Assembly (NCBI GenBank): GCA_963702895.1
Contig: OY969767.1
Coordinates: forward strand, 416,001 to 480,000
Direction: 5' to 3'
DNA from: an uncultured Elusimicrobia bacterium
GTDB lineage: Bacteria > Elusimicrobiota > Elusimicrobia > 2-01-FULL-59-12
DNA length: 64,000 nt
Shown here: in pieces, positions 414-49,228 of the stretch
Position numbering within the stretch: position 1 is the first letter of the stretch
How the letters are laid out: each line of letters begins with the position of its first letter
Program-made: the position numbers and the translations under genes
The notes under the pieces: model-generated
The model's input: only the letters and a program-made list of their open reading frames with translations
What the model was told of the DNA's origin: nothing
Databases searched by the model: none

Positions 414-568
414 TGAGCCGGGAAAGTTCGGTTGACTGTGGTTGATCGACTGAGACATCGGGACTTTTTAGTGCCGTCATCCCCCACGGTCGTAAGTGGG
501 GGATCTATCATATTTTTATGTCGATGATAGACCCCCGCTTACGATCCGCGGGGGTGACGTCAACAGAG
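414..568. repeat. Palindromic MITE/REP-like repeat copy 1, left part; terminal ATTCCCGGTTAG displaced to 1913-1924 by the IS1111-type insertion
   Basis: GTCATCCCCC...GGGGGTGAC palindrome; left arm homologous to arms of the 17156-17309 and 44929-45187 copies. Confidence 0.85.
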
Positions 569-651
569 CGTAATATGAAAGCGGGCCTCAAGAGAGTTAT
601 AAACAAGGCTGTCGGTAAAGACACCTTAATAACCCCAGGAGGCCCAAAATC

Positions 652-1695
652 ATGATATCCATCGGCATTGATCATCACAAGAAGTATTGTCAGGTTGTGG
701 CTATGAGGGAGTCTGGCGAGATTGTATGGGAAGGTCAAGTCCCCACACGGCGAGAAGGTCTTGCACAAGTTAAAGAGGCGATTCCTCCAGGAGAACCGGT
801 GCAAAGTGTATTGGAATCTGGACGGAGCTGGGGCATTGCCTATGACATTCTGGAAGATCTCGGGATGAATCCGGTGTTGGCCAATCCGTACAAAACTCGG
901 TTGATCGCGGATTCGTACATCAAGACGGACAAGATTGATGCGACGGCACAGGCGGTGTTGTTGCGATTAGGGATGACGCCGATGATTCACGTTCCCGCGC
1001 GTGACCGACGAGAGCAGAAGTCGTTATTGCGACATCGATTGTGGTTGGTCAAAAGCCAAACGCTGATCAAGAATCGGATTCATGATTTACTGGACCGGCT
1101 GCATGTGGACGTGCCCAAGCGCAGCGATCTGTTTGGGGCTCATGGGAGGGCGTGGCTGAAGGAGTTGATTCTTCCCGAGATGCATCAACACCTGCTCAAG
1201 TCGCATATGGCCTTGTTGGATGAGGTTCGGCTTCAGGTCCGAGCAACCGAAGAGTGGATTGATCGTGTCTTAAGCGAACACCCCTTACGAGAGCTTGTCG
1301 ATTCTTTTCCTGGGGTAGGCAAGATCTTGAGCGCCCTGATGTCGCTGGAAATTGACCAGATCGAGCGATTTCCGTCGGCTTCGCGCTTTGCGTCTTACTG
1401 TGGGTTGGTGTGTAGCACGTATAGCTCAGGCGGTAAAACGTACCACGGGGGATTGATCCCGTCCTGCAATCGATACCTGCGCTATGCGTTTATTGAGGCA
1501 TCGTGGACGGCTGTTCAGGTGTCTCCCTATTTTCGATCGTTCTATCAGCGTTTGAAGACACGGAAGACCGCCTCAGTCGCGATTGTGGCGGTGGCGCGAA
1601 AGATGGCAGAGATTATGTGGGTGTGCTTAAAGAACAAGCGGAAGTACCAAGAGAAAGTGTATCGATTTGGTCGAGTCGCCTTGTCGAAATCTTAA
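652..1695 (+). CDS. IS110-family (DEDD) transposase/recombinase
   Basis: IGIDHH, VLESG, KTDKIDA (DEDD); FPGVG; ASYCGLV..YSSGG serine motif; GGAGG RBS. Confidence 0.95.
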   Translation: MISIGIDHHKKYCQVVAMRESGEIVWEGQVPTRREGLAQVKEAIPPGEPVQSVLESGRSWGIAYDILEDLGMNPVLANPYKTRLIADSYIKTDKIDATAQAVLLRLGMTPMIHVPARDRREQKSLLRHRLWLVKSQTLIKNRIHDLLDRLHVDVPKRSDLFGAHGRAWLKELILPEMHQHLLKSHMALLDEVRLQVRATEEWIDRVLSEHPLRELVDSFPGVGKILSALMSLEIDQIERFPSASRFASYCGLVCSTYSSGGKTYHGGLIPSCNRYLRYAFIEASWTAVQVSPYFRSFYQRLKTRKTASVAIVAVARKMAEIMWVCLKNKRKYQEKVYRFGRVALSKS

Positions 1696-1890
1696 CGGGC
1701 GGTTGCGTTTAAACTGAGCGTAAGGGACTCGACCTCGAACTATTACAGTGTCCAGACGATGTGGACGAAGAAAAGTGTGAGTTCAGCTTAACGACAAACG
1801 TCGGGGCGAACACCGAGGACGCTTACCACACTTTAAAAGGCCTTCAAAGAAAGAAGGCAAAGAGGGAGCTTTGTTTCTGGCAGAAATTAC
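1696..1890 (+). ncRNA. Probable bridge/seek RNA region of the IS1111-type element
   Basis: Position typical for IS1111; stem AAAGTGTG/CACACTTT enclosing a smaller hairpin; guide segments not resolved. Confidence 0.5.
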
Positions 1891-2086
1891 TTGCGCCCGC
1901 TTTCAGAAAAAGATTCCCGGTTAGTGGCCCAGCTCGAAGGTCATGTTCCTGTCACCTAGCGACCTACCAAAGTGCCTGCACTTTGGAGCCTACGTCCGGG
2001 GATTGTCCCTTCCTTTGATTCAAAAGGTAGGGGACACAGACGGCCGTGGGGGATGACGGCTGGGCGAATTATCACACGATTCGTCC

Positions 2087-3314: not shown

Positions 3315-3484
3315 CAAGCCGAGAATCTTCTGTTGGGCCGGAGCTATCGCCTAAGGTCAATGGACTGATTTGTGCCGTCATCCCCCCCGGCCGTAAGGGG
3401 GGGATCCATCATTCCGTTTACGACGGTGATGGACCCCGGCTGACGACCGCCGGGGTGACGACCTAACTGAACTTTTCCGGTTAG
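3315..3484. repeat. Palindromic repeat copy 2
   Basis: Ends CAAGCCGAGAATCTTC and TTTTCCGGTTAG; internal GTCATCCCC...GGGGTGAC. Confidence 0.8.
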
Positions 3485-8500: not shown

Positions 8501-8702
8501 CTAACCGGAAATCTTCGGTTCATTTTTCCTCATTGTCTGAACTCGATGCACTTTTTTGTGCCGTCACCCCGGCGAAAGCCGGCCCTCCAGACGCCCGGCG
8601 GGCCGGGTCGCCGGACTTGTGGAGACCCGGGGTCCAGTTCAACGACGATGGACTGGATCCCGGTTTTCACCGGGATGACGACAACTGCAGATTCCCGGCT
8701 AA
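8501..8702. repeat. Palindromic repeat copy 3 (complete, 202 bp, two 24-bp modules)
   Basis: TIR-like CTAACCGGAAATCT / AGATTCCCGGCTAA; near-identical inverted copy at 24094-24295. Confidence 0.92.
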
Positions 8703-15661: not shown

Positions 15662-15814
15662 ATCCCGCCTCCTTACAAGAGTCTAATATCAGCGTGGGAA
15701 TGAAGCTATAGAACTGACGGGAAAAAGAAAAAGGCCTTTAGACACATAAGATTTTTGTGCCCATACGTTCACTCGGCTCTCTGCTCTGCCGTTCATGTTG
15801 GGGACACCTTTTCA

Positions 15815-15967
15815 TGATGAATGGGTGGTGAATAGGTGATGAATAGGTGATGAATAGGTGAACTGGCGGTTTTATCGTCTCAACAGCCATTCACCTATTC
15901 ACCGTGAATAGGTGGCTATTGTATGAATAGGTAGTGAATAGGTGATGAATAGGTGATGAATAGGTGA
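15815..15967. repeat. 11-bp tandem repeat array (GATGAATAGGT) with one inverted copy
   Basis: TGAATAGGT at 15818 (variant), 15829, 15840, 15851, 15905, 15924, 15935, 15946, 15957; inverted at 15893-15901. Confidence 0.92.
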
Positions 15968-16053
15968 CTTTGTGGCGCTTAGAATCGGGAGGGCGACAAA
16001 CGCCATGATCCGAAATGGAAAGGAAAAATGTGACGGGACATCAGCAGGCGGTC

Positions 16054-17155: not shown

Positions 17156-17309
17156 TTAGCCGGGAATCTGCAGTTGTCGTCATCCCGGTGAAAACCGGGA
17201 TCCAGTCCATCGTCGATGTACTGGATACCGGCTTCCGCCGGTATGACGGCACTAAAAAGACCAGACATGTCAGTCGATTAACCACGGTCAACCGAACCTT
17301 TCGGGTTAG
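17156..17309. repeat. Palindromic repeat copy 4 (no modules); overlaps 3' end of the GH25 gene
   Basis: TTAGCCGGGAATCTGCAG...GTCATCCCGGTGAAAACCGGGATCCAG...TTTCGGGTTAG. Confidence 0.88.
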
Positions 17310-18690: not shown

Positions 18691-18696
18691 GAGCAA

Positions 18697-30407: not shown

Positions 30408-30429
30408 AAGGCTCCTTTTTGTAAGTGCC

Positions 30430-31489: not shown

Positions 31490-31571
31490 ACGACATGACA
31501 CAACATTGCACGAAATCAGGACCCCAAGGTCCCTCACCGGCCGCGCATTATGAAGGCAGGGACGACCAGAA

Positions 31572-31886
31572 GCAGGAAATCTTTAGAGGTAGGTTGCCTC
31601 CTCTTTCCCTGGAGCAGACGCCTGCTCGCTCCAGCGAAATTTCCCCCTCCATGGCCCTAGCCCTGCAGGGCCACGGAGGGTCAGCGTTTTGGCTTCGGGC
31701 AGCCTGCGGAACTCGGACCCTTTCCCAAAAGCATAGTGGTAGGTCCTCGCACAGTCCTCCGCCACTGGGTCTCTGGCGGACGCCAACGTCGTAGTGGCGT
31801 CGGCTTGGCACACCCTCGCCAAAACGCTTGAAATTTCGAGTCGCTCGCCAGGCTCCCGCTCCTGGGAAAGAGGTGCAACTCCATCT
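31572..31886 (-). ncRNA. Unassigned structured RNA-like element A
   Basis: Long nested stems; shares motifs with element B, with compensatory changes; strand inferred. Confidence 0.55.
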
Positions 31887-31892
31887 TGATAA

Positions 31893-32112
31893 CAGGAACA
31901 TCTTTTGTCGTGGGGGAGAGAGGCAGCGAACGACTCGCGGACGGCGGCCGGGTGGTGAGCGCGTCTAGCCGAGGATGGTTGAGCCTCGACCTTTGATGTA
32001 CAGGCAGGAGGCGAGTTCCGCAGGCTGCGCGAACCACCCAGCCGGGGTGTCCGGGAGCGCCGGAGTGAGTCGCCTCCCTCCCCCACGGCAAGAACCCCCG
32101 AAGATTTCCTGC
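31893..32112 (+). ncRNA. Unassigned structured RNA-like element B (paralogue of A)
   Basis: Closing stems CAGGAACATCTT/AAGATTTCCTG and TTGTCGTGGGGGAG/CTCCCCCACGGCAA; shared core CGAGTTCCGCAGGCTGC. Confidence 0.55.
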
Positions 32113-32261
32113 ATCGGAAACGGCCAAGGGACTGGAGATGACAGGCCTAATATTATTAGGATGATCCCCAATGTGGTCCGCATCGCATTGGAAAGAGCGC
32201 TTCTGGTTGATACTGGCGGCTTCGAAGTCTTAATTCCACCTCTACAGAAAAGGAAACTGTC

Positions 32262-34527: not shown

Positions 34528-34610
34528 GGACGTTCCATCACAAACGTAACAAACTCCCGTATCCTTGCGCTTGGCGCACAGGAGTTTGTTACGTTTGTGA
34601 TGGAACGTCC
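34528..34610. repeat. Perfect 30-bp inverted repeat with 23-nt spacer
   Basis: GGACGTTCCATCACAAACGTAACAAACTCC (34528-34557) and its exact reverse complement (34581-34610). Confidence 0.9.
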
Positions 34611-34828: not shown

Positions 34829-37800
34829 TCAGGCGCTGCGGAAAACAGAACGCATCGAAGGTAGATATTTCTTCCCGTGTCGGTGGTCCGCCCCGAAGAA
34901 GATGGTCATTCCCTGAATTAGATTGACTGCACCAAATGCCGTGAGGAGGGCGCTCTGAGAAGCGCCCAGAGGTGCGAGATTTAGCAGAATCGCACCGGTC
35001 AGGAATTGAATAGCCCCTGGCAAGAAATAGAACAGGGCCAGCCTGACATCTGATCCTATCTCTGGAGGGTTCTCGCGATATCCTTGGGTTAACCAAAGGT
35101 GCGCCTTTTCGTAGAAGTTCTTCCCGGCGAGCAAACGCAGGCCTCCGCCGAGAGCCAGATGCAGGCCCACATGTGCCAGATAAAAGATCCCTGTTGCAGC
35201 TATTACAACGAGCATTTGGCGGAGCCCAAAATGATGAGCGTCCACCAGTGGAAGGAATCCGACGATGGCGCTAAGAATCGTAAACATCCCCTCTTGCGAT
35301 GCTGTTTCTGAATTTTTTCTCGCGGGTCTTCCAATCCTTGGTTCACTTGTTGGTGAAAATTCCCTGATCATGCGTTCGCGGCGTTGTGCTTGTATCGCAG
35401 GGTCTGGCGTGTAAACAAAATATTTATCAAGGACGACCTTGACTGGAAATGTGGGGTTTCCGGGAGTGAGCTCGGAGTGGAAGATACCGCCGTCTTCCGT
35501 ATTTGGAATGACAAGGCTCAGCGGGCTTTCGAGCGGTGTCTTCACCAACTGATATCCCGCTCCAAGGACTTTATCGGCATCTTTATCAAACAACGTAGCC
35601 GGGAAAATGATAGGTCGCCCGGACACGTCGGCCCATACTTTCATGTACATTAGGAAAGCGGGCAGAAAATCCAATTCAGACCGAACAGAGTACACATTGC
35701 TAGTCGCTAGAAGAGGTCCTTCTTGGGATCGAGCGATGGAAAATCTAGCCAAACGGTCCCTCCCGCGATTCTCTTCCGTTTTAAGGAATGCATAGACAGC
35801 GTGAATCCAAGGATTTTCCCAGTACGCCCGGATGTTGTGGAGTATGTGCTGTCTGTAGCGGTATGTGAAATCCAAAGAGCCGTGTGTTCCTGGGAATCCT
35901 ACGAATAGGCTTTCGAAGGGTTTATAAGCGGCGTCCAAAATAACCAGTTCCGATTTCAGAGATTGTCTTTGAATCTCTCTGGTCAAGTTTTGAAGGGTCA
36001 GGAGGTTGTCCGTCAGTCTTTCGATCTCGTCTCGCAGTCCCGTCAACATCTGCGCCTGCTGGTGGGTATGTTTCTTTCGAGCTTCCAAGTGGAGTCGTTG
36101 AATTGCTTCAACGATGGAGAGCAGGACACTGCGGAGGGAAGTGGCGATGATTTCACTTTCCTTTGATAATTGTTCATCCGATCGGAGCCTGATGGTTCCC
36201 TCCATCTCTAGTAATTTCAGGAACTGTGGATCAATCTTTTCATGGGAGCGCAGGGCCACAAGGTTCGGATCTATAAGCAAGGATGCTAAACCGGCACGCA
36301 CCTCTTTCCAGCATCTCATTCTGCTTTCCATGGCGTTGGAGTACTGACGCAGGTGGATGGGGATCTCGATGGCTCCCGGGCCCTCCAACCAATCAGATAT
36401 CTGGATGGGGTCAGCTTCGCGGCGTTGTTTGAGAGACCCCCTATAGTATCTTGATGATTCCTGCAGAGCAGCGCTGGCGTCACCTGGATACCTTTGCAAC
36501 ATCTGCGTATAGCGGATGAGACATTGCTTAAAGATCTCTGCTCCAGGTATTACGTGCTCTTTTATATGCTCATAGTAATGCAAGGCGATCTCCAGATCTG
36601 GATGAACACTGATGCGACGCAGGGGGTCGAACGTAACCCCCAATATCATGGAAAGAGGGATGGTCTCACGCAGTCCAGCGATTTCTCTTATTGCCTTTTC
36701 CAGCGCTGTATAGACGGATTTACTTTTAATCGTTCTCCGCGGTGTCGATTCATCCGGCTTCCATTCCCTGATCAGGTTCGAGAGCACGTTGCTGACGGTG
36801 GGGATGGCGCCCCGGGTTCCGGTCATGGATTCAGAGAATTCCGTCAGCGAGCGGAGAAGTGTGCCGAGTCCTCCCAACAATCCGCCATACTCCTTTTTCG
36901 ATAGAAGTGGCCAAATATCGCTCAACGCATTTAGGAGATCATGAATCTTCGGTCCAAAAGGGGTCGAAAGGGCTTGCGCTGCATATTGAAGATTGCTCCG
37001 ATTCTCAATCTTTTCGCCACTGATCCAAAACTGGTTCAACAGCAAAGGTAGATCTCTGCGCCTAAACATGAATAAGACAATCAAATGGGCGAGAAGGTCT
37101 TTGGGATTTAATGTTTCCAATCGGCGGACACGTTCAAGCGATTCGCTTGAACCACGGAGTCGATTCCAAGTCACGATGAACCTGCCGCGTATGTTCTGAT
37201 CATCGATGTTAGGTGCCCCAAATTCCAGCTCAGTTAATAAGGTGCGTTCAAAGGCAATAAATTCCGACTCCGGGTCCGAAATCCCTGATCCAGGAAGACC
37301 GTCATAAACCGAAAGGGGGTGCCCAAGCCATATCAATGCCTCGAGGGTTTGTTCCCAGGCTGTCGTCCGGTCAATGGCGATGAGGCTGGGGGAGCCCCGG
37401 GACGAGGCCAGGATCTTCATTACCCATTGCATCACGTGCTGGGCATTCTGCCATGTGTGCGTGATGGGCGCAGAAGTGCGCAAAGGGTTTGATTCGTATT
37501 GAATATAACGAATGACATCATCTATGGAGCTGGTTCCCCGGAGCTGGCCGGGGCCAGCAATACGGATTTCTTCAGCCTTGGCGATCCTCTCGATGCGTTC
37601 CACGAGCGAAGACCAGCGGAGATTGTTGTCCCGCACGATGTGCTTCGCTTGAATTTCAATCATCTTTCGAGCAAGCAGGCCCGCCAGCTGATCTGGTGTC
37701 AATCGTTCAGCGAGCTTCCGGCCAATAAAAATCTTGTTATCCATCGAAGAAGCTATGCTCGTTTGATGGCCCGGCGCCTCTTCCTCAAACACAACGACGG

Positions 37801-40800
37801 AGATTTTATTGAGCCAACGGTTGTAATCAATGTTTCCGAAGGGTATCAGAAAGTGCGTGTAGGACACGAGCCCAGGGGGTGTTAACATCAGAAATAAGGT
37901 GCGCGTAAATATTGCAAACCGATCCATAAGTTGTACTGCATTGCGGATCCACCTTGCCTTTGGGCGGGAGGGACTCTCCACGGCGAGCCCTCGCAACTGA
38001 TCAAATGCCGCGCGGCACTTGTTGATCAGCTCCCTGTTGTCCGAAAGGATCTCATCCATTCTGGGTGGAGTGATCGAACGCAAATCACCGGCGCTCGCGA
38101 TGGTTCTCGGGAGTCCTCCGCGTGCTTCATCGTGCGTATAGAGTCTTCGCGTCCCTCCCAAGGGTTCGCGGCGCTCCAGCGGGCCGGGTCCCAGACTTGC
38201 TTCTGCGTCAGCAGGAACTTTCCTTTCCAAAAGCCTAAAGGCGAAATTAAGAAGCAATATGGTCAAGTATCCAAAAACAACAAGGCCGACTATCTGCATC
38301 GCGAAAAATGAGACGTCTCCGGGGAAAGAAGGTCCCAGCGGCCAGGAGGAAGAGAGCGGCGTCAAAAGCCCCGCGAAAAATGAGACGTCTCCGGGGAAAG
38401 AAGGTCCCAGCGGCCAGGAGGAAGAGAGCGGCATCAAAAGCCCCGCGAGGGCGCTCCCGATCACGAAGGAACCTTCCATGGAGGCCCCGCCGTGGGGTGA
38501 GTCTTCTGCTGAGTCCGGATGAAGTCCTGATGCGGACTCCAAAGAATGACTCTTAGAAAAAGCGTCACGAATATTCTTCACGCGATCCCGGAGTGGCACG
38601 GGGATATCGTTAAGGCTCCGGCGTAGAGACGGCCGCGCTGTGGCATCTGAATAGCGATAGGGAGTGGCATGTTCTCCTTTCTTTTCTTGAATCAAAATCT
38701 TAAACCGCCCAGTATCAGTGCTCTCATCGAGAAAATCTCGCAGCGCTGCAGGTGACTGCCGTTCCGAGTTTGGCCCAAACCGTCCTTTTAAGGCCTGTTC
38801 TCGCACAGAGGTTCCGCTCATCAAATCACGCACCAACCCAAACCACGTCGTGTGGAGCGCTGTGTCTTCCCCGCGATTTGCCAAGGCTGTGAAGTTCAAA
38901 TCCGCCGTAATTTGTTGCTGCAAAATACGTGGGTGATAGGGAGGGGTGAGTTGTTCCTCCAATGGCACCTCTCCTCCATAGATATGGTGTTGAGGTGCTC
39001 CGGTGTGAAGATGTCTGAAAAGATCAGGAGCGCTGTGTCCATAATCCAACGTGAAAATGAACCCGGCTTCAAGGGCGCGACCGACATTTTCGACAAAAGA
39101 ATCCGCTTCGGTGTTGGCGAAGATCGTCCATCTCTGTTGTTCATGGCTTGCCAGGGCTGTGGCATAATCCTCGGCGTTTCGCTGGAGATGCTCGGCGACT
39201 TCAGGAATCTGTTGGGAAGGCACGTAGGTCTCTGTGTAGGTAATGCTGGCAAGCCGGGATTGAATGTCGCCCGGCGGCAGGCCCCCAACCGCCGATAGAT
39301 ATTTTTCAAAGCTTGATCGCGTTAGATACATGACGTTAACGCCGTTCAGCGCTGTCCGATCCCGGACCTCCGCGTCTTGTTGCCGGATGAGATCGTTCAA
39401 TTCCTGTCCGGAACCGATCTCGTCCAAGAGAGCAAGATGTTCAATCGGGATTTGCGGTATAACGAAAGCCACTTCCGCTTCACCTTGTGTTGTCAGAACG
39501 ACTTTGTGGGAGCCTAAATCATCCAGAAGCTCGTTTGTGAAGATCACCCCCTTGATCCTTCCCCCCATTAATGTGGCGAGTTTCGCTTGAGCTTCCCCCA
39601 ATACCGCATCCATTTTCCCTTTGTCAATATAATCACGGCCTTCCGCCGCCTGGCGATCATGTAGGCGAGCAGACTGCTCTATAATCGTGTAATGCAATTG
39701 GTTCCAGAAATCTCGCCATTCTGAGCTGGAACCATGTGAGGCACGGGACTCGACATAGCGCATGACGTCTCGAGAGAGAATGCCCGTTCCACCACCAAAT
39801 TCGACGAAATGAAACACATCCTGGGGCGAGAGGGATTCGTTATGACGCATATGTTGCCACATGCTAAAGAGGTGTTCCGCAATCATTCTCCCGAACAAAG
39901 GAGACAGCTCGACAGGCAGGGTCGAAAAATCTTCGTGGGGACCAATTCCCGCTCGATAACGATAATACAGCTGGTTGACAAGCGACATGAAGTCCTTAAA
40001 AGAGACGAAGAGTTCTGGCGCGACATTCTGCAGACGCTCAGGGAGGGAAATCGGTTCTGAGGGCTCGGCCGCGGCCTCGGTGGCAGGGATATTGCGCTCT
40101 CGGCGGGTGGGTCCGGAAGGATGAGCAGATAAAGGATTTGCAGGACGTGATCCGTCGCCCATTCGAGGCGCCAGGCCAGCGCTATCGGAGGGGCTTTCCG
40201 CCGAGGGTCCGATTCGTCCAGGTTCGGAAGTGACAGAAGCTCCCCCAGTCGGCGACCCCGGGCGGTTCGGAACTGAGCTTGAGTCAGGCGGGGACTGCAA
40301 GCGCTCCTTCATGGTTTTCAAACGTGCCACAAACCGTTCGAAATTTTTTCCCTTCATTCTTGCAGGCAGCCAATCCTGATTACTTTCCAGCCATTCCAAA
40401 AAGGCTTGAATACCGCTGACGAGTTCCTGTCTTACTGCGTCGGCATCTTCGCCTTCTTCAACATAAGGCTCCATAAATGCTTCGTCCGATATTCTGTTGC
40501 TCTGTCGAATCAAGATCTTGAGAAAATCAATCCGGCTGTTCTTATAGAGCTTGTTTTTAAACGGCGGTTCCGTGGCCACGACCGGGAGTAGGAATCGAAT
40601 CCGTTTGGCGATCTGTTTCTGGGGGAAATTTGGCTTTTCGGGAGTTTGAACTTCGAAGATAATCCTCAAGTTGTCCGTGCCGTCAGCCGATTTCGCGGCC
40701 TGAATATGAATGCTGGCCTCGTCGCGAAACCGGCTCCCGTACAGCGCATATCCCGCCTTCTTATAGTTTGTCATCAGGGTAATGATATTGATCAGGCGAT

Positions 40801-43800
40801 GCTCGATCATCCGGAAGGTGTCTCTGATTTCTTGCGCGATTCGATCCCGGTAGGCGACCATGATAGGGTGATCCGCAGGGGGGACCTTTTCCCCGGGATG
40901 GTCGCGCAAAAACATATTGCGGGGTCCATTTTCCAGGACGTCATGAAGCAATCCGCCTCCGATGAGGATGACCGGGTCTCTTTCTCCTTGTCGCAACAGG
41001 AGGGCCATGACGCTGGCAGGATGAACGGCGTAGTCGCGCCCATCCAGCCGTCTTTCGGGATCCCGTCGTTCTCCGTCCTTCGATACGGAGTGAAATTTCT
41101 CCATCAGCCGGATGGCGTCTTGAACCATAATGAGGGACTCTTCATCCTCTTGGCCGGGAGTTCCTTCTGCAAGATCGGAAGGCATGGGTTCATCGATATC
41201 GCCCTCCATCTCCTCGTCGCCCGCAAATGGACTGACCAACTTCTCCATGACCCCATCCAGGAAACGTCTGATTCTCCCTCTCCCAAATTTCTCCTGCAGC
41301 TTTTCGAGGGTCTTGACGGCCGTCGCATCGAAAATATCACCGGGCCCCACTTCGAAATGTTGGATCGACAGGTCGTGCGCTCGCTGCATTTGACCAAGGA
41401 CGCCCTGCAGGATAGTGATCGCGGATATTTCCGGAGCATCTAGCGAGGAAGGGATGGAAAGCGCGAAATTCAGCCAGAGAGTGCCGCTTTCCGTTTCTTC
41501 GTCGATGGTCAACCGCGCAATGTTCGCTAATGGCAATAGTGTGTTCAGGGTCGCAAAGAAATTCTTCATGAGGAGGGGATTGTCGGGAATCTGCACACTG
41601 GCCGTGACCCGTTTGATCGGCCGTGGCCCGGTGTTTGTGGGTGATAGGCGCAAGGCATTCATCTTTTCCACCAGAGACGTCATATCGACGTGGCGGTCTC
41701 TTTGCAGGACGAGACGCAATAGCCCAGTTCCTTCTTCGGCCGGGAGCGTACGCGAGCCTGCCAAGAGACGCGCTCCATGGTCGACGATCAAACCCATCAC
41801 GTGGGCAAAGATGGCTGGCTGATCTTTGGGGACCCGGATCAGGACGACCACCGTGTCCGATGTTTCCGCCGAGAGGTCCAGAGTGGCATTGATTTCGACA
41901 AAATCGGGAGTTGGCGTGTTGGCCTCCGGGGGTGGAAGATCGACGCCCGGCACCGTGGGCGCGATGGGGACGGTCGGAATAGGTGTTGGCAGGGCCTCGG
42001 AGGTCTGTATTGGGGCTGGGCTGGGCTGGACGGCCTCCACTGGCGCGGGCGATGCTGGTCTTTCCAGACGGGTCGCTTTCAAACGGCCTACGACATCGTC
42101 AAACGAGAGGACCCCGCAGGCGATGGCCAGCAGCGCGTATTCCGCATTGGGGACGGGCATTCCCTTCTCTCCAGCTAAGTCAGCAAGGCTGCGGCTGTAT
42201 CGTGCTAATCTGGGAGGAGTCCCGGCATTTTCCAGATCCTGGGTCGCCAGGGCAATCATTTCACCACGAATTTCTTGCCAGAGTGCCTCCTGGCGTTCAG
42301 CCACATAGGTATCGCGATGGGTAAGGCCCATGGCGGCCAGTAGGTGGTCGGCGTCGGGGAAGGAATGCTTCGAGGCCAGCGGCCCGAGGACTTGCCGTAA
42401 GGGCTGAAGCCAATTGGGTGACGGTCCACGGGGACGTGGACCCGTCTCCCTTTGCAGTCGTTCATGCAATTTCTCCGTGCCCTCCGCAGCTAATTCTGCT
42501 AACTGGGAGGCCCGGTCATCACTCTGGCGCAATTCGAATTCGACGAGAGCAGGCAAGGTGGAGGCGGATCTCATCATGGTCCGCAAGGACGCTGGGTTAT
42601 GTCTGATTGAAGCACCCTCCCTATCGGGCACATTGTCTGGCTTCACCTCATCTCCGTCTTCCAGTCGATATCCGAGGTCGACCCAGAATCCTCGATGCCT
42701 TCCCCGCGAAATATTGGCTCCACGGGTCCGGGGCCCCAAGGCGTTCATTTGCGCCAGGGCATCCGCCACGTTGCCTCTTCTTGACCCTCCTTTGGGGACG
42801 CACGCCGGAATCAAGTTTTCAGTATGTTCGTCGAACGGAGCGTGGAAGAAAAAAATGAAGGGATTAACGAGCTTTTCTCCAAATTTATTGAAAGTTCCTC
42901 GAGGGTCACGCTCATCCGGTTCAAAAGGATCATAGGCAGGGAGGACAAGAGTCAGCTGCTGTACCAGATAAGCCCAGCGGGCTTTTGTTGGACCGTAGCG
43001 GTATCGCCAATAAGCGTCCTGGTCATCGAAAATCTGGAATTCGTGCGGCCGGCGCTCGCCTGTTAACACGCGTTCGAACGAGGTGTGAAACGCCCAGTCC
43101 ATGCGTGAGGGGTCCGTCTGGTATTCGAAATGCTTCGCGATCCTGGCAGTCACATCGTTCTGTTGATCTGCATTGGTGAGAATAACGCTAAACCGCAGGA
43201 TGTCCCTTATCTCGCCGACGTGGCCATACCCCCTCTTGTCCGATCTCAGTTTGCGCATGACGGCGCCAACAGTTTTCAAGTTCCACGAAATTACCACTCC
43301 CTCGGGCAAGTCCTTTTGAATATCTCGTGCAGTCTTGTCCAGATAATCTCTCATCTCCGGCCAGGACATTTTGTATTCGGCTTGGATATCAGCATTCATC
43401 TTGGCATAGGCAGTAGGATCCGCCAATTGCTCGGCTTCATCCAGCAGTGAAGTGCTCAAGCCGGGCATGCCGAGGCGCTCGAGCAGGGGGACGTACACTT
43501 CGCTGATTTCGCGGTAGGTCTCATGCAGGACGTCGGAAGACACATTCGCTCCTTTCATCGTGGCCAATTTGGTTGCCATGGTCAGCAAAAGCACATCCAG
43601 AGAGCCCGCCTTTTTCGCATAGTGACCCATCAGATCCGGAATGGCCCAGCGGTGCTTGTCCAGCTGCTCTTTTGTCAGTCCGTAGCTCGTCGGGAACGTC
43701 TTGTTTACTTTTTCAGTCACTGCGAGCAGCCTGTCTTTTTCAGCTTTTTGGAGTCCCATTCGGCGTCGTTCCGATTCAGTGGTGCGGAGGAGGAACGCCG

Positions 43801-44803
43801 CGGCTAAGACATCAGGATCCACTTCGAGATTCAAGGCGCGAATCATCAAACGGTATTTCGCTGCGACATCGCTGCAGAACGTAGAATCCTCACTCCCTTG
43901 GCCCATATCGCGCTGGCTATAGATCTGGGCGGCTGCGGCGCGAGCTTTCTCCACGATCAGAGGATCTCTCGGGGGCGTTTGTTCGTCGGGGGCTGGTTGG
44001 CCGGCCGGATCCGGCGCTGACCCGGAGGGGGATGCGTCCATGATGGCAGGTACTCGAGTCCAGTCGCGGTTATTCATTTCATGGTAATAGGTGCTGAGCC
44101 AGAGGCCCGGAAGCGTGAGCAGAGGTGTGGCCAGCGCCGCAAGAAGCGCCGCTGTGGCCGGATCGGCGTGCGGGGCAAAAACGCGCGCAAACACCAGAGC
44201 GGCTCCCAGCGTGGTCGCTAGGAATACCCCGGTCAGGCTTCTGGCTGTCTGCCGCACTTCGTCACGCTGAGCATCCGTGAGGTTCCAGCCTGTCCGGTGG
44301 TCGATTCTGTGCCGGGAAACGAAATAAGGGATGCTGGTACGGTAAGCCAGGTAACCCAATCCGCCGGCAACGGCCATGCCGATCCCAACCAGGGGCGCGC
44401 CGGTCACGCCCAGTTTGATCAGGGAGGCGATGGCTGCAAGGGAACCGGCGGCGGCCCCGGTCCAGGGCAAGTAACGGACAAGGAATTCCTGCTCGCCAGG
44501 CTCGGAAATTTCGCGGTTGATACGCGCCGTGAAATCTCTGTACATTCCGGCAAAGGACTGGAAAGGCTGAAGTTTAATGAGCCGCGCGGCAAGCGCGGCG
44601 GGGGCCAGAGCGTCTTCCTGGAAGCGCGCGTTCTGAAATGAGGTGGATGCGGAGGTCGTCGGTGAAAGGCTTTGACCCGCCGCAAACGATAAAGCGTGCG
44701 GGTCTGCGGCAAGCGCGAAGACGAGAATCAGCGATGTCAGCCGGTAAAAGGTTCGATTCATAAGAATCCCAAACACGCCTGCGCGCGCGTTCGATAGGTT
44801 CAT
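34829..44803 (-). CDS. Giant 3324-aa multidomain membrane protein (RelA/SpoT-like, TGS, ACT, HD hydrolase, MidA/NDUFAF7 methyltransferase); start may be ATG 44761
   Basis: 10 kb uninterrupted ORF; KTVGAVMRK/IRDIL/HEFQI; YAVHP..LLHDVLEN..KSADGTDN; VEFGGGTG..TNELLD..TLDYGH..ITADLNF. Confidence 0.85.
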   Translation of the reverse strand: MNLSNARAGVFGILMNRTFYRLTSLILVFALAADPHALSFAAGQSLSPTTSASTSFQNARFQEDALAPAALAARLIKLQPFQSFAGMYRDFTARINREISEPGEQEFLVRYLPWTGAAAGSLAAIASLIKLGVTGAPLVGIGMAVAGGLGYLAYRTSIPYFVSRHRIDHRTGWNLTDAQRDEVRQTARSLTGVFLATTLGAALVFARVFAPHADPATAALLAALATPLLTLPGLWLSTYYHEMNNRDWTRVPAIMDASPSGSAPDPAGQPAPDEQTPPRDPLIVEKARAAAAQIYSQRDMGQGSEDSTFCSDVAAKYRLMIRALNLEVDPDVLAAAFLLRTTESERRRMGLQKAEKDRLLAVTEKVNKTFPTSYGLTKEQLDKHRWAIPDLMGHYAKKAGSLDVLLLTMATKLATMKGANVSSDVLHETYREISEVYVPLLERLGMPGLSTSLLDEAEQLADPTAYAKMNADIQAEYKMSWPEMRDYLDKTARDIQKDLPEGVVISWNLKTVGAVMRKLRSDKRGYGHVGEIRDILRFSVILTNADQQNDVTARIAKHFEYQTDPSRMDWAFHTSFERVLTGERRPHEFQIFDDQDAYWRYRYGPTKARWAYLVQQLTLVLPAYDPFEPDERDPRGTFNKFGEKLVNPFIFFFHAPFDEHTENLIPACVPKGGSRRGNVADALAQMNALGPRTRGANISRGRHRGFWVDLGYRLEDGDEVKPDNVPDREGASIRHNPASLRTMMRSASTLPALVEFELRQSDDRASQLAELAAEGTEKLHERLQRETGPRPRGPSPNWLQPLRQVLGPLASKHSFPDADHLLAAMGLTHRDTYVAERQEALWQEIRGEMIALATQDLENAGTPPRLARYSRSLADLAGEKGMPVPNAEYALLAIACGVLSFDDVVGRLKATRLERPASPAPVEAVQPSPAPIQTSEALPTPIPTVPIAPTVPGVDLPPPEANTPTPDFVEINATLDLSAETSDTVVVLIRVPKDQPAIFAHVMGLIVDHGARLLAGSRTLPAEEGTGLLRLVLQRDRHVDMTSLVEKMNALRLSPTNTGPRPIKRVTASVQIPDNPLLMKNFFATLNTLLPLANIARLTIDEETESGTLWLNFALSIPSSLDAPEISAITILQGVLGQMQRAHDLSIQHFEVGPGDIFDATAVKTLEKLQEKFGRGRIRRFLDGVMEKLVSPFAGDEEMEGDIDEPMPSDLAEGTPGQEDEESLIMVQDAIRLMEKFHSVSKDGERRDPERRLDGRDYAVHPASVMALLLRQGERDPVILIGGGLLHDVLENGPRNMFLRDHPGEKVPPADHPIMVAYRDRIAQEIRDTFRMIEHRLINIITLMTNYKKAGYALYGSRFRDEASIHIQAAKSADGTDNLRIIFEVQTPEKPNFPQKQIAKRIRFLLPVVATEPPFKNKLYKNSRIDFLKILIRQSNRISDEAFMEPYVEEGEDADAVRQELVSGIQAFLEWLESNQDWLPARMKGKNFERFVARLKTMKERLQSPPDSSSVPNRPGSPTGGASVTSEPGRIGPSAESPSDSAGLAPRMGDGSRPANPLSAHPSGPTRRERNIPATEAAAEPSEPISLPERLQNVAPELFVSFKDFMSLVNQLYYRYRAGIGPHEDFSTLPVELSPLFGRMIAEHLFSMWQHMRHNESLSPQDVFHFVEFGGGTGILSRDVMRYVESRASHGSSSEWRDFWNQLHYTIIEQSARLHDRQAAEGRDYIDKGKMDAVLGEAQAKLATLMGGRIKGVIFTNELLDDLGSHKVVLTTQGEAEVAFVIPQIPIEHLALLDEIGSGQELNDLIRQQDAEVRDRTALNGVNVMYLTRSSFEKYLSAVGGLPPGDIQSRLASITYTETYVPSQQIPEVAEHLQRNAEDYATALASHEQQRWTIFANTEADSFVENVGRALEAGFIFTLDYGHSAPDLFRHLHTGAPQHHIYGGEVPLEEQLTPPYHPRILQQQITADLNFTALANRGEDTALHTTWFGLVRDLMSGTSVREQALKGRFGPNSERQSPAALRDFLDESTDTGRFKILIQEKKGEHATPYRYSDATARPSLRRSLNDIPVPLRDRVKNIRDAFSKSHSLESASGLHPDSAEDSPHGGASMEGSFVIGSALAGLLMPLSSSWPLGPSFPGDVSFFAGLLTPLSSSWPLGPSFPGDVSFFAMQIVGLVVFGYLTILLLNFAFRLLERKVPADAEASLGPGPLERREPLGGTRRLYTHDEARGGLPRTIASAGDLRSITPPRMDEILSDNRELINKCRAAFDQLRGLAVESPSRPKARWIRNAVQLMDRFAIFTRTLFLMLTPPGLVSYTHFLIPFGNIDYNRWLNKISVVVFEEEAPGHQTSIASSMDNKIFIGRKLAERLTPDQLAGLLARKMIEIQAKHIVRDNNLRWSSLVERIERIAKAEEIRIAGPGQLRGTSSIDDVIRYIQYESNPLRTSAPITHTWQNAQHVMQWVMKILASSRGSPSLIAIDRTTAWEQTLEALIWLGHPLSVYDGLPGSGISDPESEFIAFERTLLTELEFGAPNIDDQNIRGRFIVTWNRLRGSSESLERVRRLETLNPKDLLAHLIVLFMFRRRDLPLLLNQFWISGEKIENRSNLQYAAQALSTPFGPKIHDLLNALSDIWPLLSKKEYGGLLGGLGTLLRSLTEFSESMTGTRGAIPTVSNVLSNLIREWKPDESTPRRTIKSKSVYTALEKAIREIAGLRETIPLSMILGVTFDPLRRISVHPDLEIALHYYEHIKEHVIPGAEIFKQCLIRYTQMLQRYPGDASAALQESSRYYRGSLKQRREADPIQISDWLEGPGAIEIPIHLRQYSNAMESRMRCWKEVRAGLASLLIDPNLVALRSHEKIDPQFLKLLEMEGTIRLRSDEQLSKESEIIATSLRSVLLSIVEAIQRLHLEARKKHTHQQAQMLTGLRDEIERLTDNLLTLQNLTREIQRQSLKSELVILDAAYKPFESLFVGFPGTHGSLDFTYRYRQHILHNIRAYWENPWIHAVYAFLKTEENRGRDRLARFSIARSQEGPLLATSNVYSVRSELDFLPAFLMYMKVWADVSGRPIIFPATLFDKDADKVLGAGYQLVKTPLESPLSLVIPNTEDGGIFHSELTPGNPTFPVKVVLDKYFVYTPDPAIQAQRRERMIREFSPTSEPRIGRPARKNSETASQEGMFTILSAIVGFLPLVDAHHFGLRQMLVVIAATGIFYLAHVGLHLALGGGLRLLAGKNFYEKAHLWLTQGYRENPPEIGSDVRLALFYFLPGAIQFLTGAILLNLAPLGASQSALLTAFGAVNLIQGMTIFFGADHRHGKKYLPSMRSVFRSA
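38300..38448. repeat. In-frame 72-bp tandem duplication within the giant gene
   Basis: AGLL(M/T)PLSSSWPLGPSFPGDVSFF twice. Confidence 0.92.
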
Positions 44804-44928: not shown

Positions 44929-45187
44929 TTGCCCGGGAAACTGCATTTGCTGTCTCCCCGGCACGTCGTAAGCCGGCCCTCCAGACTACCGGCGGGCCGA
45001 GCGCCACACACCCGGCGCTCTCCGCCTGTCGTGTGGCGGAGGGTCGCCGGGTGTCTGGAGACCCGGGGTCTATCACCGTCGACAAAAAACTCATGGATCC
45101 CCTACTTACGACCGTGAGGGATGACGGCACAAAAAAGTCCCGACGTCTCAATCGATAAAGAACGTTCAACAGAACTTTTCCGGTTAA
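44929..45187. repeat. Palindromic repeat copy 9 (four stacked hairpin modules)
   Basis: TTGCCCGGGAAACTGCA ... ACTTTTCCGGTTAA. Confidence 0.88.
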
Positions 45188-45552: not shown

Positions 45553-46212
45553 ATGGAACTTGACGACCTGCGAAGGCGCGTGGCCGGGGAAGAATTCGAC
45601 TATCAGATGCTGATGGACGTTTTGCGGGGGTATGACCGTCCCCGGGACAAGGTCCGCGCGCTGCTCAAAAAGAAGTCGATCATACGGGTTAAGAAGGGCC
45701 TGTATGTCTTCGGAGAAACGCTGGCCAGGCGTTCCTATTCCCGGGAAGTCCTGGCCAATCTCATTTACGGACCTTCCTACATTTCTCTGGATTACGCGCT
45801 CCATTACCATGGGCTGGTTCCCGAGCGGGTGGAAAGTATCACCTGCTGTACCCCGGGCCGCGGGCGCCAATTTTCGACCCCCATCGGCCGTTTCAGCTAT
45901 CGCCAGATTCCTGCCGCCGCGTACGCGCTGGGAATAGACCAGGTGAAACTGGATGAGGGCCGCGCGTTTTTAATCGCGGTCCCGGAAAAAGCACTTGCCG
46001 ACAAGCTGGTGGCCGATCGGGGGACCGCCATCGCGAGTCCGGCCGAACTGAAGACGTATCTCGTCCATCACCTTCGGGTTGATCTGGAGGAATTGGCCGG
46101 TATGCAATCCAGTCTGATGGCGCGGATCGCTGTCGCTTATCGTTCCCGAAAACTCCACTGGCTTAGTCAGTTGATCCATCCATCGGCAGGAGGGAAAACC
46201 CATGATGAATGA
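45553..46212 (+). CDS. AbiEi-type antitoxin (type IV TA)
   Basis: IIRVKKGLY, PSYISLDYALHYHGLVPE, IAVPEKALAD. Confidence 0.85.
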   Translation: MELDDLRRRVAGEEFDYQMLMDVLRGYDRPRDKVRALLKKKSIIRVKKGLYVFGETLARRSYSREVLANLIYGPSYISLDYALHYHGLVPERVESITCCTPGRGRQFSTPIGRFSYRQIPAAAYALGIDQVKLDEGRAFLIAVPEKALADKLVADRGTAIASPAELKTYLVHHLRVDLEELAGMQSSLMARIAVAYRSRKLHWLSQLIHPSAGGKTHDE

Positions 46213-47071
46213 GGCCGTCGTCCGGATGCTCGCCCGCTATGAAAGCCGGACCGTGGAGGATCGCGTCCAGGCGCTGCGTGAAATCCTGCAAGAAATCGCC
46301 CTGCTGGGACTCTGGCGCAGCAAGTTTTTCGACAAAGCGGCCTTCTACGGCGGGACGTCCCTGCGGCTCCTGTATGGGCTCGACCGGTTTTCCGAAGACC
46401 TGGACTTCTCACTCTTGCGGCCGATGCCGGGCTTTGACCTGCGGCAGTATGCGGGCGCCCTGGAGCGGGAAATCGCCTCGTTCGGCTTTGATGTGCGGCT
46501 TGAAAAGAAAGAGAAAACAGCCGAGAGCAGAATCCAGTCCGCCTTCCTCAAGGCCGACACCGCAAAGCACCTCCTGGTGGTTGAAACCGCCGAAGCGCTC
46601 CTGCGAAAGATCCCGCGCGGGCAGATCATCAAAATCCGCCTCGAAGTCGACACCGACCCGCCGCCCGGATTCGAAACGGAAAATAAGTTTCTCCTGCATC
46701 CCATTCCGTTTGGGGTCCGCACCTACGTCCTGCCGGATCTTTTCGCGGGGAAGATGCACGCGGTCCTTTGTCGACGCTGGAAGAACAGAGTCAAGGGCCG
46801 CGACTGGTACGATCTGGTGTGGTATGCCGCCCATCATCCAAAACTGCATGCGGCGCATCTGGCGCAGCGCATGCTCCAGAGCGGCGATCTGAAAACTGGC
46901 GTCTCTCTGACGCAAGATCAGTGGATGGACATGGCCCATGCCGCCGTTGACCAGCTCGACGTCGCGATGGCCAGAAAAGAAGTCGAACCCTTCGTGAAAA
47001 ACCCGTACGCGTTGAAGGCCTGGTCACCGGCGTTTTTTCACGACGTCCTTAAACGGGTCGTCCTCGTTTAA
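46202..47071 (+). CDS. AbiEii/AbiGii nucleotidyltransferase toxin
   Basis: FYGGTSLRLLYGLDRFSEDLDF; K..A...R; RDWYD. Confidence 0.92.
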   Translation: MMNEAVVRMLARYESRTVEDRVQALREILQEIALLGLWRSKFFDKAAFYGGTSLRLLYGLDRFSEDLDFSLLRPMPGFDLRQYAGALEREIASFGFDVRLEKKEKTAESRIQSAFLKADTAKHLLVVETAEALLRKIPRGQIIKIRLEVDTDPPPGFETENKFLLHPIPFGVRTYVLPDLFAGKMHAVLCRRWKNRVKGRDWYDLVWYAAHHPKLHAAHLAQRMLQSGDLKTGVSLTQDQWMDMAHAAVDQLDVAMARKEVEPFVKNPYALKAWSPAFFHDVLKRVVLV

Positions 47072-47099
47072 GCCCGGCCCATAAAAAGGCGCTGTCGGA

Positions 47100-47115
47100 C
47101 TAACCGGAAATCTTC
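47100..47115. repeat. Terminus of repeat copy 10, interrupted by the group II intron (arm continues 48998-49042)
   Basis: CTAACCGGAAATCTTC identical to 8501-8516; 3' exon TTCCT..GTCTGAAC..GCACTTTTTTGT aligns with 8526-8559. Confidence 0.85.
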
Positions 47116-48997
47116 GTGCGCCAGGACAAACTGCACTGAACCCAGTGGATGAAAGATCCACGGCCCAAGGCCTAGCCAGCCAGGGCATAGCTCGTCTTGC
47201 ATCGACGGCCGTGAGGTCGGAGGCGAAGCGTAGACAAGCGACAACGTAGGCCGCAAGGTGATAAACCGATGGAGCCCCGAAAAGAACGGTAATGTTGTGG
47301 AAGCCGAGGCTGTGAAGATCGCCGAAGGCAACAAGGTTCCAGCCAAGACGGCAGGGAGGGAGCCTTTCCGCCGGGGTCGTACGAGGGCGGCATGTGTTGA
47401 AGGGACAGTGACGGGACCTGGGAGGCCTGCCGGGAGTCTGGGAGACTGGACACCGCCAACCCGAGGGACAACCAAAGGGAAACGGACCGGCAGGAGTCAG
47501 AGAACCCCATAGTACCTGAGAAGCGGGTAACGACCGTGGAGGGAAGGGGGCGACAGGAGGAGGAAGCGATGGAGGGACAGGGAGCTGATTCACAGAAGTC
47601 AGAGACTTCCTTAACGAAACTCCGGCGCGTAGCGGAGCAAGCGAAGCAGAATCAGAAGATGCGCTGGATATCGGTCAATCACCTCATGGACACCGACCTG
47701 TTGCGGGACAGTTGGAAACGGATCCGCAAGAGCGGAGCCAGCGGGGTGGATGGCCAGACAGCGCAGGCATACGGACAAGACCTAGAGAAGCGGTTGGAAG
47801 AGCTTCATGAGCGACTGAAGGCGGGGACGTACCGGGCACCGCCGGTAAGGCGGGTGTGGATTCCCAAGGCGGACGGCAGGCAACGGCCGATCGGGATACC
47901 GACGTTGGAGGATAAGATCGTCCAACGGGCGGTGGCCACGATCATGGAAGCGGTGATGGAGCCGTTGTTTCTGGAGAGTTCGTACGGGTACCGGCCTGGG
48001 CGGAACGCCCATCAGGCGCTGTGGTCCATACAACGGACGCTGATGTATCAGCCGATCCACTGGGTGCTGGAGATCGACCTGGAGTCGTTCTTTGACACCT
48101 TGGATCACGGATGGCTGAGACGGATGGTGGACGTACGGATGGGCGATGGGGTGATCCAGCGGCTGATCGGGAAATGGCTGAGTGCGGGAGTGATGGAGGA
48201 AGGAAGGGTGACGCGAACGGATCAAGGGAGCCCGCAAGGCGGTGTGATTTCGCCGATGTTGGCGAATATTTATCTGCACTACGGGATAGACCTGTGGTTT
48301 GCGAAGGTCATCCAACCGAAACTCAAGGGAGAATCGTACGCGTGGCGATATGCGGACGATATCCTGATGGCGTTCGAGCATGAAGCGGAGGCGCGCGAGG
48401 TCCAAAGGCAGCTTGGGGAGCGTTTGGCGAAGTTTGGCCTTAAGCTCAACCCAAGCAAGACACGCCTGATCCGGTTTGAGAGGCCACGAGACACAAACGG
48501 GGACGATCCGCCGGATCGGAGCGCGTTCGACTTTCTGGGGTTCACGCATTACTGGGCGAGGAGTCGACGAGGGATGTGGGTGGTGAAGCGGAAGACCGCC
48601 GGGAAGCGATTACGGCGGGCGATGAGTGCGGTGACGCAGTGGTGTAAAGCACACCGGCACTGGAAGCTCCGCGAACAGCACCAACACCTGAATGCGATTC
48701 TTCGAGGGCATTACCAGTATTACGGGATGACCTGGAACTGGGTTGGACTGAGCGTCTTTCACCTGCATGTGGTCAGAACGTGGCAGAGATGGTTGAGCCG
48801 CCGGAGTCAGACGGCTTACATTCACTGGGATCGGATGGAACAGATCCTGGAGAACTATCCCTTGCTACCTCCAATCATTATTCATCCTGATCCATGGCGC
48901 ATGGCACGTGAGTCCTTTTCTTGAAGAGCGTCGTGCGGGAAATCCGCACGCGGCGTTCTGTGAGGGGGCGGGAGGGCGACCTCCCGCTCTACTCGAT
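47116..48997 (+). mobile_element. Group II intron (bacterial, IIB-like, no En domain)
   Basis: 5' GTGCG; domain V GAGCGTCGTGCGGGAAATCCGCACGCGGCGTTC; domain VI ending CTACTCGAT; EBS1 GAAGAT 47314-47319. Confidence 0.93.
47569..48924 (+). CDS. ltrA: Group II intron reverse transcriptase/maturase
   Basis: GVDG, RPIGIPTLEDKIVQ, GSPQGGVISP, YADD, FDFLGF, X domain. Confidence 0.96.
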   Translation: MEGQGADSQKSETSLTKLRRVAEQAKQNQKMRWISVNHLMDTDLLRDSWKRIRKSGASGVDGQTAQAYGQDLEKRLEELHERLKAGTYRAPPVRRVWIPKADGRQRPIGIPTLEDKIVQRAVATIMEAVMEPLFLESSYGYRPGRNAHQALWSIQRTLMYQPIHWVLEIDLESFFDTLDHGWLRRMVDVRMGDGVIQRLIGKWLSAGVMEEGRVTRTDQGSPQGGVISPMLANIYLHYGIDLWFAKVIQPKLKGESYAWRYADDILMAFEHEAEAREVQRQLGERLAKFGLKLNPSKTRLIRFERPRDTNGDDPPDRSAFDFLGFTHYWARSRRGMWVVKRKTAGKRLRRAMSAVTQWCKAHRHWKLREQHQHLNAILRGHYQYYGMTWNWVGLSVFHLHVVRTWQRWLSRRSQTAYIHWDRMEQILENYPLLPPIIIHPDPWRMARESFS

Positions 48998-49228
48998 CAT
49001 CGGCCAGTTCCTACCGTCTGAACCTGCCGCACTTTTTTGTCCCCTCTCCCGCCGCCAGGTGGGAGACCCGCGCTTCCGCAATTTCCTATAGCGCGCAGGT
49101 CCCACGGTCGTAAGTGGGAGGGTAAAGGGTGAGGGCAAGAGGCCACTGTCTCGGTGGCTGCGGAGTATCACTCGACTGCGGTGGATAAGGCCAGACTTTG
49201 AAATGATAAACTTGAAGCCTTCAATCCC

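Follow-up and report, generated by a model that had tools for sequence, protein, structure and literature searches.

Do unrelated mobile elements that choose their targets by RNA pairing settle in the same non-coding repeats and, if so, at which bases? This question is raised by a stretch of 64,000 nucleotides (hereafter the window; contig OY969767.1, positions 416,001 to 480,000) from an uncultured Elusimicrobia bacterium, in which three autonomous elements, an IS1111-type insertion sequence (IS), an IS110 element and a group II intron, each interrupt a copy of a dispersed palindromic repeat. An initial annotation of the window proposed that these elements had converged on one repeat, serving as a safe harbour, and had partitioned it among themselves. 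Here, the analysis was extended to the closed 2.72-Mb genome that contains the window (G000) and to other genomes. We consider it very likely that the repeat is a composite, in which IS1380-type ends and repetitive extragenic palindromic (REP) hairpins form a miniature inverted-repeat transposable element (MITE), and that it is exploited by five RNA-guided lineages, each through base pairing.

Genome-wide placement of RNA-guided elements

IS110-family copies were collected over the whole genome with the PF02371 profile, and group II introns with tblastn. The former amount to 13 copies of four kinds, namely A1 (n = 2), A2 (n = 3; 88% identical to A1), B (n = 5) and C (n = 3), and the latter to three. 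A repeat map built by iterative blastn comprised 301 intervals, which cover 1.27% of the element-free genome (1.8% when padded) and 10.5% of the non-coding DNA, as delimited by a crude open reading frame (ORF) mask. All 13 IS110-family copies and all three introns were found inside mapped repeats (16/16); because the map was partly seeded with the three IS110-C sites, the count free of seeds is 13/13. The comparison set consisted of four families of DDE elements defined from Pfam and self-comparison: IS1380 with seven copies, and three others with 7, 9 and 2 copies, which, judging from their proteins, are probably IS4, IS256 and IS30. Only one of these 25 copies was inside a repeat (Fisher p = 1.6e-10 against 16/16).

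Ten repeat intervals were mapped in the window, in line with the approximate number annotated initially, and the junctions of the three elements (568-1910, 29365-30612 and 47116-48997) agree with those given there; excising each element rejoins uninterrupted repeat sequence. Across the genome, every RNA-guided kind has one fixed target base and one orientation. Thus, the other copies of these elements lie neither outside the repeats nor at random positions, the outcome that the initial annotation had named as speaking against it, and the proposal that unrelated RNA-guided elements have converged on repeats in non-coding DNA is borne out by the 16/16 placement and by guides complementary to their targets. 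The association is real, statistically overwhelming and mechanistically readable, with positions, orientation, guide-target complementarity and covariation all apparent at the level of sequence.

Such a distribution might also arise if insertion were broad and copies persisted only where they are harmless. Repeats make up about 10% of the non-coding DNA under the crude mask, and purifying selection would enrich them among the surviving sites. However, DDE elements are exposed to the same selection and only 1/25 lies inside, and selection of this kind predicts neither a single base and orientation per RNA-guided kind nor guides that are complementary to their sites and covary with them. Even within non-coding DNA alone, a 16/16 placement would occur by chance with a probability of about 2e-16. 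This survivorship explanation is already largely refuted, and we hold it to be very improbable. Low host cost may have selected for these targets, in which case the repeats could be called a safe harbour.

Two parts of the original proposal had to be given up. Rather than one repeat, three sequence layers are present, namely IS1380 ends, CGTC-tagged REP doublets and a second palindrome; and rather than sharing out the repeat, the intron and the IS1111-type elements overlap, as their insertions fall within one 4-nt stretch of the terminal inverted repeat (TIR). What is partitioned, on a finer scale, is the set of TIR sequence variants, among the members of each element lineage.

A composite MITE with IS1380 ends

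Sorted by motif, the 301 intervals comprise 193 with CGTC-type hairpins, 63 with a second hairpin family, 3 with both and 42 with neither. Paired arms enclose 38 of them, and some 250 other hairpin intervals have no such enclosure. The ends had been described as TIR-like, and a TIR is indeed present, starting with CCGGRAA; the four bases outside it are instead a YTAR target-site duplication, the flanking 4-mers being identical in 27 of the 38 paired copies (direct repeat only in 23, palindromic in 4, inverted only in none, neither in 11). The proposed GTCAYCCC core is likewise not universal, since the intron-bearing copy lacks it and has the IS end joined to the second palindrome type (CCCTCTCCC/GGGTGAGGG), where no right arm was detected by the scan. 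With TIRs, a target-site duplication, no coding capacity and multiple copies, the repeat has the attributes of a MITE, and its copies are predicted to fold into long hairpins.

The MITE end pattern was matched in 28 of 301 genomes of the class, as compared with 2 in the reversed control. One match flanked an IS1380 transposase remnant and led to an intact IS1380 element (L099) of 1545 bp, which is flanked by TTAA at either end, shares its TIR with the MITE and has an NF033539 match above cut-off. Over its terminal 58 nt, L099 has 72-84% identity with the long arms of the MITE (E values down to 1e-11). The MITE would thus carry an IS1380 left end of about 17 nt (short arm), an IS1380 right end of about 58 nt (long arm) and a 4-bp YTAR duplication. 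Because the ends of L099 and the duplication match, sequence comparison indicates that the arms are of IS1380 origin and the MITE is IS1380-derived; IS1380-family ends would enclose a REP doublet of either hairpin family and so form a non-autonomous element. The seven resident IS1380 copies were considered as its mover and rejected, as they have other ends, 6-7 bp duplications and 24% identity to the parent clade. An integron-like reading of the ends as attC (RYYYAAC...GTTRRRY, inverted) was rejected because the flanks are direct duplications, with 0/38 inverted only. The CGTC hairpins fit REP dimers and the SRM pattern, for which 149 matches were found, 123 of them in repeats, against 17 in the reversed control; it is found in 99 of the 196 CGTC intervals and at two of the five IS110-B sites. 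As for a RAYT/Y1 partner, a single weak hit was obtained, 13 kb from any repeat.

At least 10 of the 38 paired copies have a partner at 96-99% identity, pointing to recent mobility. Each RNA-guided element might then have inserted a single time and been carried along inside a moving MITE. This explanation is at odds with the finding that copies of a given element reside in dissimilar repeat copies, which vary in the type of their arms, in their inner hairpin family and in their length. Moreover, insertion at TIR positions 9-12 would break the end needed for transposition. We regard carriage of this kind as very improbable, the least likely of the explanations weighed here.

Several arrangements involving these hairpins were also seen elsewhere in the genome. 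Resident IS1380 copies (e.g., 508,307-510,121) have a CGTC hairpin 25 nt inside their left end. Two MITE copies (184,606-184,870 and 144,165-144,300) are inserted, with CTAA duplicated, in the loop of a CGTC hairpin, which represents a deeper level of nesting, and three tandem 105-bp MITE halves with one arm occupy 1,380,369-1,380,680. Another non-coding element, distinct from the MITE and about 550 bp long, lies at window positions 31568-32119 and has a TIR, GCAGGAAATCTT, related to that of the MITE; about eight genomic copies (73-92% identity) show no clear duplication, and none is occupied by RNA-guided elements. Small GIY-YIG genes lie within inverted CGTC hairpins at 543,286-543,640 and 554,230-554,610, a layout like that of Ssn/NTS in the accessible part of its description (PMC11893778); judged by layout, 2 of 9 GIY-YIG hits are boxed by the CGTC motif. 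A lone DUF559 gene (1,904,700-1,905,500) with second-hairpin arrays on both sides parallels the Ssn/NTS layout, and a tandem GIY-YIG gene pair at 1,812,950-1,813,950 is accompanied by duplicated tRNA 3' ends with hairpin inserts.

IS1111-type elements A1 and A2 in the terminal inverted repeat

The window copy of A1 (568-1910, forward strand; 1343 bp), one of two identical genomic copies, is inserted between TIR positions 10 and 11. To its left lies most of a MITE copy on the same strand (414-567), comprising the 4-nt flank, the long arm (IS1380 right end), a CGTC REP doublet and the start of the short arm; the rest of the TIR and the 4-nt target duplication lie to its right (1911-1924; map interval, A1 included, 416-1924). 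The element encodes an IS110-family transposase of 347 amino acids (652-1695, forward; PF01548, PF02371 and NF033542 above cut-offs). According to accessible parts of a recent account, the IS1111 group is defined by subterminal inverted repeats of 11-13 bp, extensions of 6-7 nt on the left and 3 nt on the right, and a downstream non-coding region (PMC11187229). A1 and A2 have a perfect 11-bp subterminal inverted repeat (576-586 and 1895-1905 in the window copy), or one of 13 bp with a single mismatch, leaving extensions of 6 and 3 nt, and a 3' non-coding region of about 215 nt.

A predicted target-binding loop of A1 (1686-1718, forward) combines a right guide, GAAATCT (1686-1692), which overlaps the end of the ORF by its final codons, with a left guide, AAACTGAG (1711-1718), and is followed by a predicted donor-binding loop (1741-1775), TATTAC and GAAGAAAAG, which by eye matches the circle junction. 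The predicted seekRNA has the order of the IS1111 group, in which the segment matching the top strand comes before the one matching the bottom strand: the right guide is 5' of the left guide in A1, A2, L129 and L130. At all three A2 sites and in all three readable foreign relatives, the left-guide slot is identical to 7-8 nt of the left flank; as the latter have different targets, the slot covaries with the target. In the A family, the slot at the ORF end pairs with the right flank. A2 is inserted between TIR positions 9 and 10, one base away from A1, and the left guide of A1 may account for this shift. The 3' guide RNA of both elements would read the bottom strand of the TIR, with recombination at 10|11 and 9|10, respectively.

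IS1111 relatives were found in five of 392 other genomes. The three with readable junctions use non-TIR sites, and thus TIR targeting by this family is a local retargeting; of the remaining two, L131 is cut by a contig end and L132 is distant.

A group II intron homing to the same terminus

On the strand opposite to A1 and A2, the three introns enter the TIR at 12|13. The window copy (47116-48997, forward; 1882 nt) has GUGYG...AY ends, Rfam matches for domains D1-D4-6 and DV/VI with the domain I and DV/VI folds, and a reverse transcriptase (RT)/maturase of 462 amino acids with a YADD motif (47536-48924, forward; TIGR04416 above cut-off) in which no endonuclease domain was matched. Its 5' exon (47100-47115, forward; map interval 47101-49066) consists of CTAA and the first 12 nt of the TIR, with the intron-binding sites IBS2 and IBS1; the 3' exon (48998-49135, forward) is the rest of the IS1380 right end, followed by the disrupted second palindrome. 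Putative exon-binding sites (EBS) were placed at 47286-47290 (EBS2), 47314-47319 (EBS1) and 47379 (EBS3), all on the forward strand. EBS1 GAAGAT and EBS3 G face ATCTTC|C in two copies, and GCAGTT and U face ATCTGC|A in the third, so that EBS1 and the putative EBS3 vary together with the exon; EBS1 pairing extends over 6 bp in two copies and 5 of 6 in the third. The endonuclease-less intron would reverse-splice into the top strand of the TIR via EBS1, EBS3 and probably a short EBS2, and its protein probably reads the constant YTAR duplication at -16 to -13.

The RT is 49% identical to that of a disrupted intron on pRmeGR4b, as compared with 35% to RmInt1/RmInt2 (pairwise values, no tree). The available text of one report places the pRmeGR4b intron, matched here by plasmid and disruption only, in class E as S.me.I4 (PMC5894124), and the nearest labelled relative of our intron would accordingly be class E. 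Assignment to group IIC, with its upstream stem-loop and 3-4 bp EBS1 pairing, was rejected because the upstream DNA is unique flank plus 16 nt and the EBS1 pairing is longer. Replication-strand bias was uninformative, with 2/3 introns on the lagging template predicted from skew.

Intron 5' DNA matched 7 of 393 genomes. It lies in TIRs in G000, G351 and G040 and outside them in G021 and G014; no 5' end could be read in G031 and G358. The G351 relative, with an RT 80% identical, is inserted at +12 of a 650-bp element that has the same TIR type, a CTAG duplication and no REP inside, and two other introns of that genome are outside TIRs; a metagenome scan returned one locus, which is the G351 locus itself and is counted once. 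In G040, 2/2 intron 5' ends and 5/5 3' ends are at +12 of a mini-element of about 50 bp with the same TIR type, and one of two IS110 elements lies within a CGTC doublet. An RT search (E<=1e-60) yielded relatives in 8 of 300 other genomes at 35-43% identity, most with unreadable junctions, and a protein search gave five RT relatives at 81-93% identity that come without genomic context. More distant introns occupy non-TIR sites. TIR homing is thus a trait of this intron clade, seen in three genomes. Reverse nesting was noted at one locus of G014 (L090), where an IS1380-type end breaks domain I of a group II intron.

IS110 elements in the inner hairpins

IS110-B (29365-30612, reverse strand; 1248 bp) is one of five near-identical copies and interrupts the REP hairpin at CTTTCGC[C]GGGGT. 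On the forward strand it is flanked to the left by a short arm (IS1380 left end) with the start of the REP hairpin (29334-29364), and to the right by the remaining REP doublet, a short arm and the CTAA duplication (30613-30744; map interval 29334-30744). Its transposase, an IS110-family protein of 350 amino acids (29382-30434, reverse; PF01548, PF02371 and NF033542 above cut-offs), is preceded by a non-coding region (30435-30612, reverse) predicted to encode the bridge RNA. The predicted target guides, CTTTCGCC (30538-30545) and ACCCCG (30518-30523), fall in one internal loop of the predicted fold, and predicted donor guides are at 30476-30483 and 30453-30458 (all reverse). In 5/5 copies, insertion is on the loop side of a CGTC hairpin, whether MITE arms are present or not; three of the five sites lack arms by regular expression, one of them (504,670) by eye as well. 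The 13-nt target predicted from the guides occurs 42 times in the genome, every time in a repeat. IS110-C is inserted in the second hairpin family in 3/3 copies, and its guide segments ACCCT and GGAGAG match the target by eye. IS110-B would thus read the CGTC hairpin and IS110-C the second one.

How far RNA pairing accounts for target choice

The predicted RNAs would have to be made and to act as guides, and several findings weigh against assigning all targeting to them, or against the composite origin of the target. Copy numbers are small. The transposase of the parent IS1380 clade was not found in G000, where the best candidate reaches 24% identity. The left guide of A1 has one mismatch at each of its two sites, so that an exact-match test scored 0; the full targets predicted for A1 and A2 have 0 perfect genomic matches, with one-mismatch matches numbering 20 (14 in repeats) and 23 (19 in repeats), respectively, and minimum-energy folds of both elements lack a clean target loop. 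For IS110-C, only 21 of the 55 occurrences of the 9-nt predicted target are in repeats. In the intron, EBS1 and EBS3 alone match 546 sites, of which 15 are in repeats; this is too loose, and therefore EBS2 or the protein must add specificity. EBS2 is a putative pairing of only 3-5 bp, the addition of which leaves 15 sites, 8 in repeats. Finally, EBS1 of the G351 intron pairs with 3 of 6 exon bases, and RNA pairing is not the whole story there. Two DNA sequencing runs with a low share of this organism gave fragments only and no junctions.

These points bear on the possibility that the elements recognize the repeats through protein-DNA contacts or as hairpins in single-stranded form, as with IIC introns, pairing being secondary. 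Repeat copies can form long hairpins, the G351 intron is at +12 with only 3 bp paired in EBS1, and RmInt2 shows selection for C-16 and T-15 in the distal exon, which the accessible portion of that study ascribes to the protein (PMC4615759). Against this, the intron site is preceded by flank, duplication and 12 nt of TIR, with no hairpin among them; in G000, copies with different exons also differ in EBS1 and EBS3; and the IS guides covary with their targets across relatives. We judge recognition primarily by structure or protein to be unlikely, although less so than survivorship or carriage, and favor RNA pairing as the main determinant.

A four-base hotspot and parallel variant choice

The five IS1111-type copies and three introns amount to eight insertions within TIR positions 9-12, made from opposite strands. 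The sites of A1 and of intron 1 are on arms reading CTTC (4/4), and those of A2 and of intron 3 on arms reading CTGC (4/4). In the stock of 87 arms, CTTC accounts for 34, CTGC for 29 and GTTC for 23, and GTTC arms are unoccupied. The split between sister forms thus follows the same pair of TIR variants in the IS1111-type elements and in the introns, with 8/8 insertions sorting by variant (chance about 3e-4 by hand arithmetic on small numbers).

This pattern might reflect a guild of hyperparasites that tracks the IS1380-type TIR, in which the IS1111 and intron lineages, as the TIR diverged into CTTC and CTGC, have split in parallel and re-tuned their guides and now compete for the same four bases, GTTC (23/87) being the current escape variant. 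Because insertion destroys the end and would immobilise the MITE, guild members could act as programmable brakes on IS1380/MITE spread. We put this forward tentatively, as a scenario that is rather doubtful at present.

Relation to known systems

Each of these habits, and the convergence itself, has a precedent, and the case is assembled from habits already described. IS1111-attC elements (ISPa21, ISPst6 and ISKpn4) and group IIC-attC introns use nearly the same attC end (PMC3001079, PMC11187229, PMC7923331; accessible text). As here, one multicopy non-coding palindrome is entered at almost identical points by a group II intron and by an IS1111-type element, so that the convergence supported by our data already had a precedent in print (PMC3001079). 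In contrast to attC, the target here is an IS1380-type TIR, the intron, nearest to class E, would pair by EBS1/EBS3 with no upstream hairpin, the two elements are on opposite strands, and two further IS110 elements sit in inner hairpins.

Another close parallel is RmInt2, found in the inverted repeats of ISRm17 in Sinorhizobium meliloti GR4 (PMC4615759, PMC5894124). From the text available, it too is an endonuclease-less intron homing to IS inverted repeats with a relaxed EBS2, and the sites that we read have CTAG at -16 to -13 in 4/4 pSymA copies, the same geometry of YTAR plus 12 nt. RmInt2 differs in being class D, with an RT 35% identical, an unrelated repeat sequence and an autonomous IS as host, and those text portions mention no IS110 co-targeting. 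IS110 and IS1111 elements at fixed TIR or REP positions are exemplified by IS4321/IS5075 in Tn21-family TIRs and by ISPa11, ISPpu9/10, ISRm19 and IS621 in REPs, and ISPpu9 and ISPpu10 are two different IS110 elements at one shared REP point (PMC11187229, PMC1525189; as far as the accessible parts describe them). Unlike IS4321 or ISPa11-type cases, four IS110 kinds here share out two TIR variants and two hairpin families.

CGTC-tagged REP dimers (PMC3733652) correspond to the hairpins termed NTS/SRM in work on the Ssn nuclease family (PMC11893778). The hairpins described here share with them the terminal CGTC/TGTC tag, AT/AC as first stem bases and head-to-head dimers, but a subset is wrapped in ends of IS1380 type, outside which 4 bp are duplicated. 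As early as 2013, REP dimers within longer palindromes were noted in three species, with no IS origin given in the part of the paper available (PMC3733652). In the main texts of the open-access literature, no paper was found on IS110 elements and introns jointly using a MITE end or REP, and the accessible sections of PMC3522654 and bioRxiv 10.64898/2026.10.21.760802 contained nothing specific to joint targeting. What is new is that the wrapper derives from IS1380, that unrelated elements share a hotspot of four bases and that their guides have split in parallel.

While no new mechanism is revealed, the locus provides a natural experiment on target choice and target change by RNA-guided mobile elements: the genome is closed and has many unoccupied sites, and it contains two chemically unrelated systems whose sister guides differ at the bases where the targets differ. 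It offers four natural sets of IS110 guide, target and donor, including a pair with a one-base crossover difference, as well as a TIR-homing intron clade (three genomes) and a REP-carrying MITE traced to an IS1380 subgroup.

Other features of the window

The window also holds unoccupied MITE copies. One with a CGTC doublet is at 3315-3484 (map interval 3317-3484), and another, at 8501-8702, has CTAA on each side and an empty IS110-B target; the copy at 24094-24295 is 99% complementary to 8501-8701. Copies with TTAG on each side are at 17156-17309 (154 bp) and 23083-23296, and one with an enlarged CGTC doublet is at 44929-45187 (map interval 44933-45187). A CGTC doublet with a single arm occupies 27369-27529 (map interval 27369-27526).

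Two short tandem arrays with an 11-nt unit lie at 15795-15989, and a c-di-AMP riboswitch at 18486-18693 is upstream of a gene of the amino-acid-permease family. An ORF of 3324 amino acids with HD and methyltransferase domains (34829-44803) has a perfect 33-nt inverted repeat just downstream (34528-34610), and an AbiEii-type toxin-antitoxin pair (45553-47071) is located between a MITE copy and the intron.

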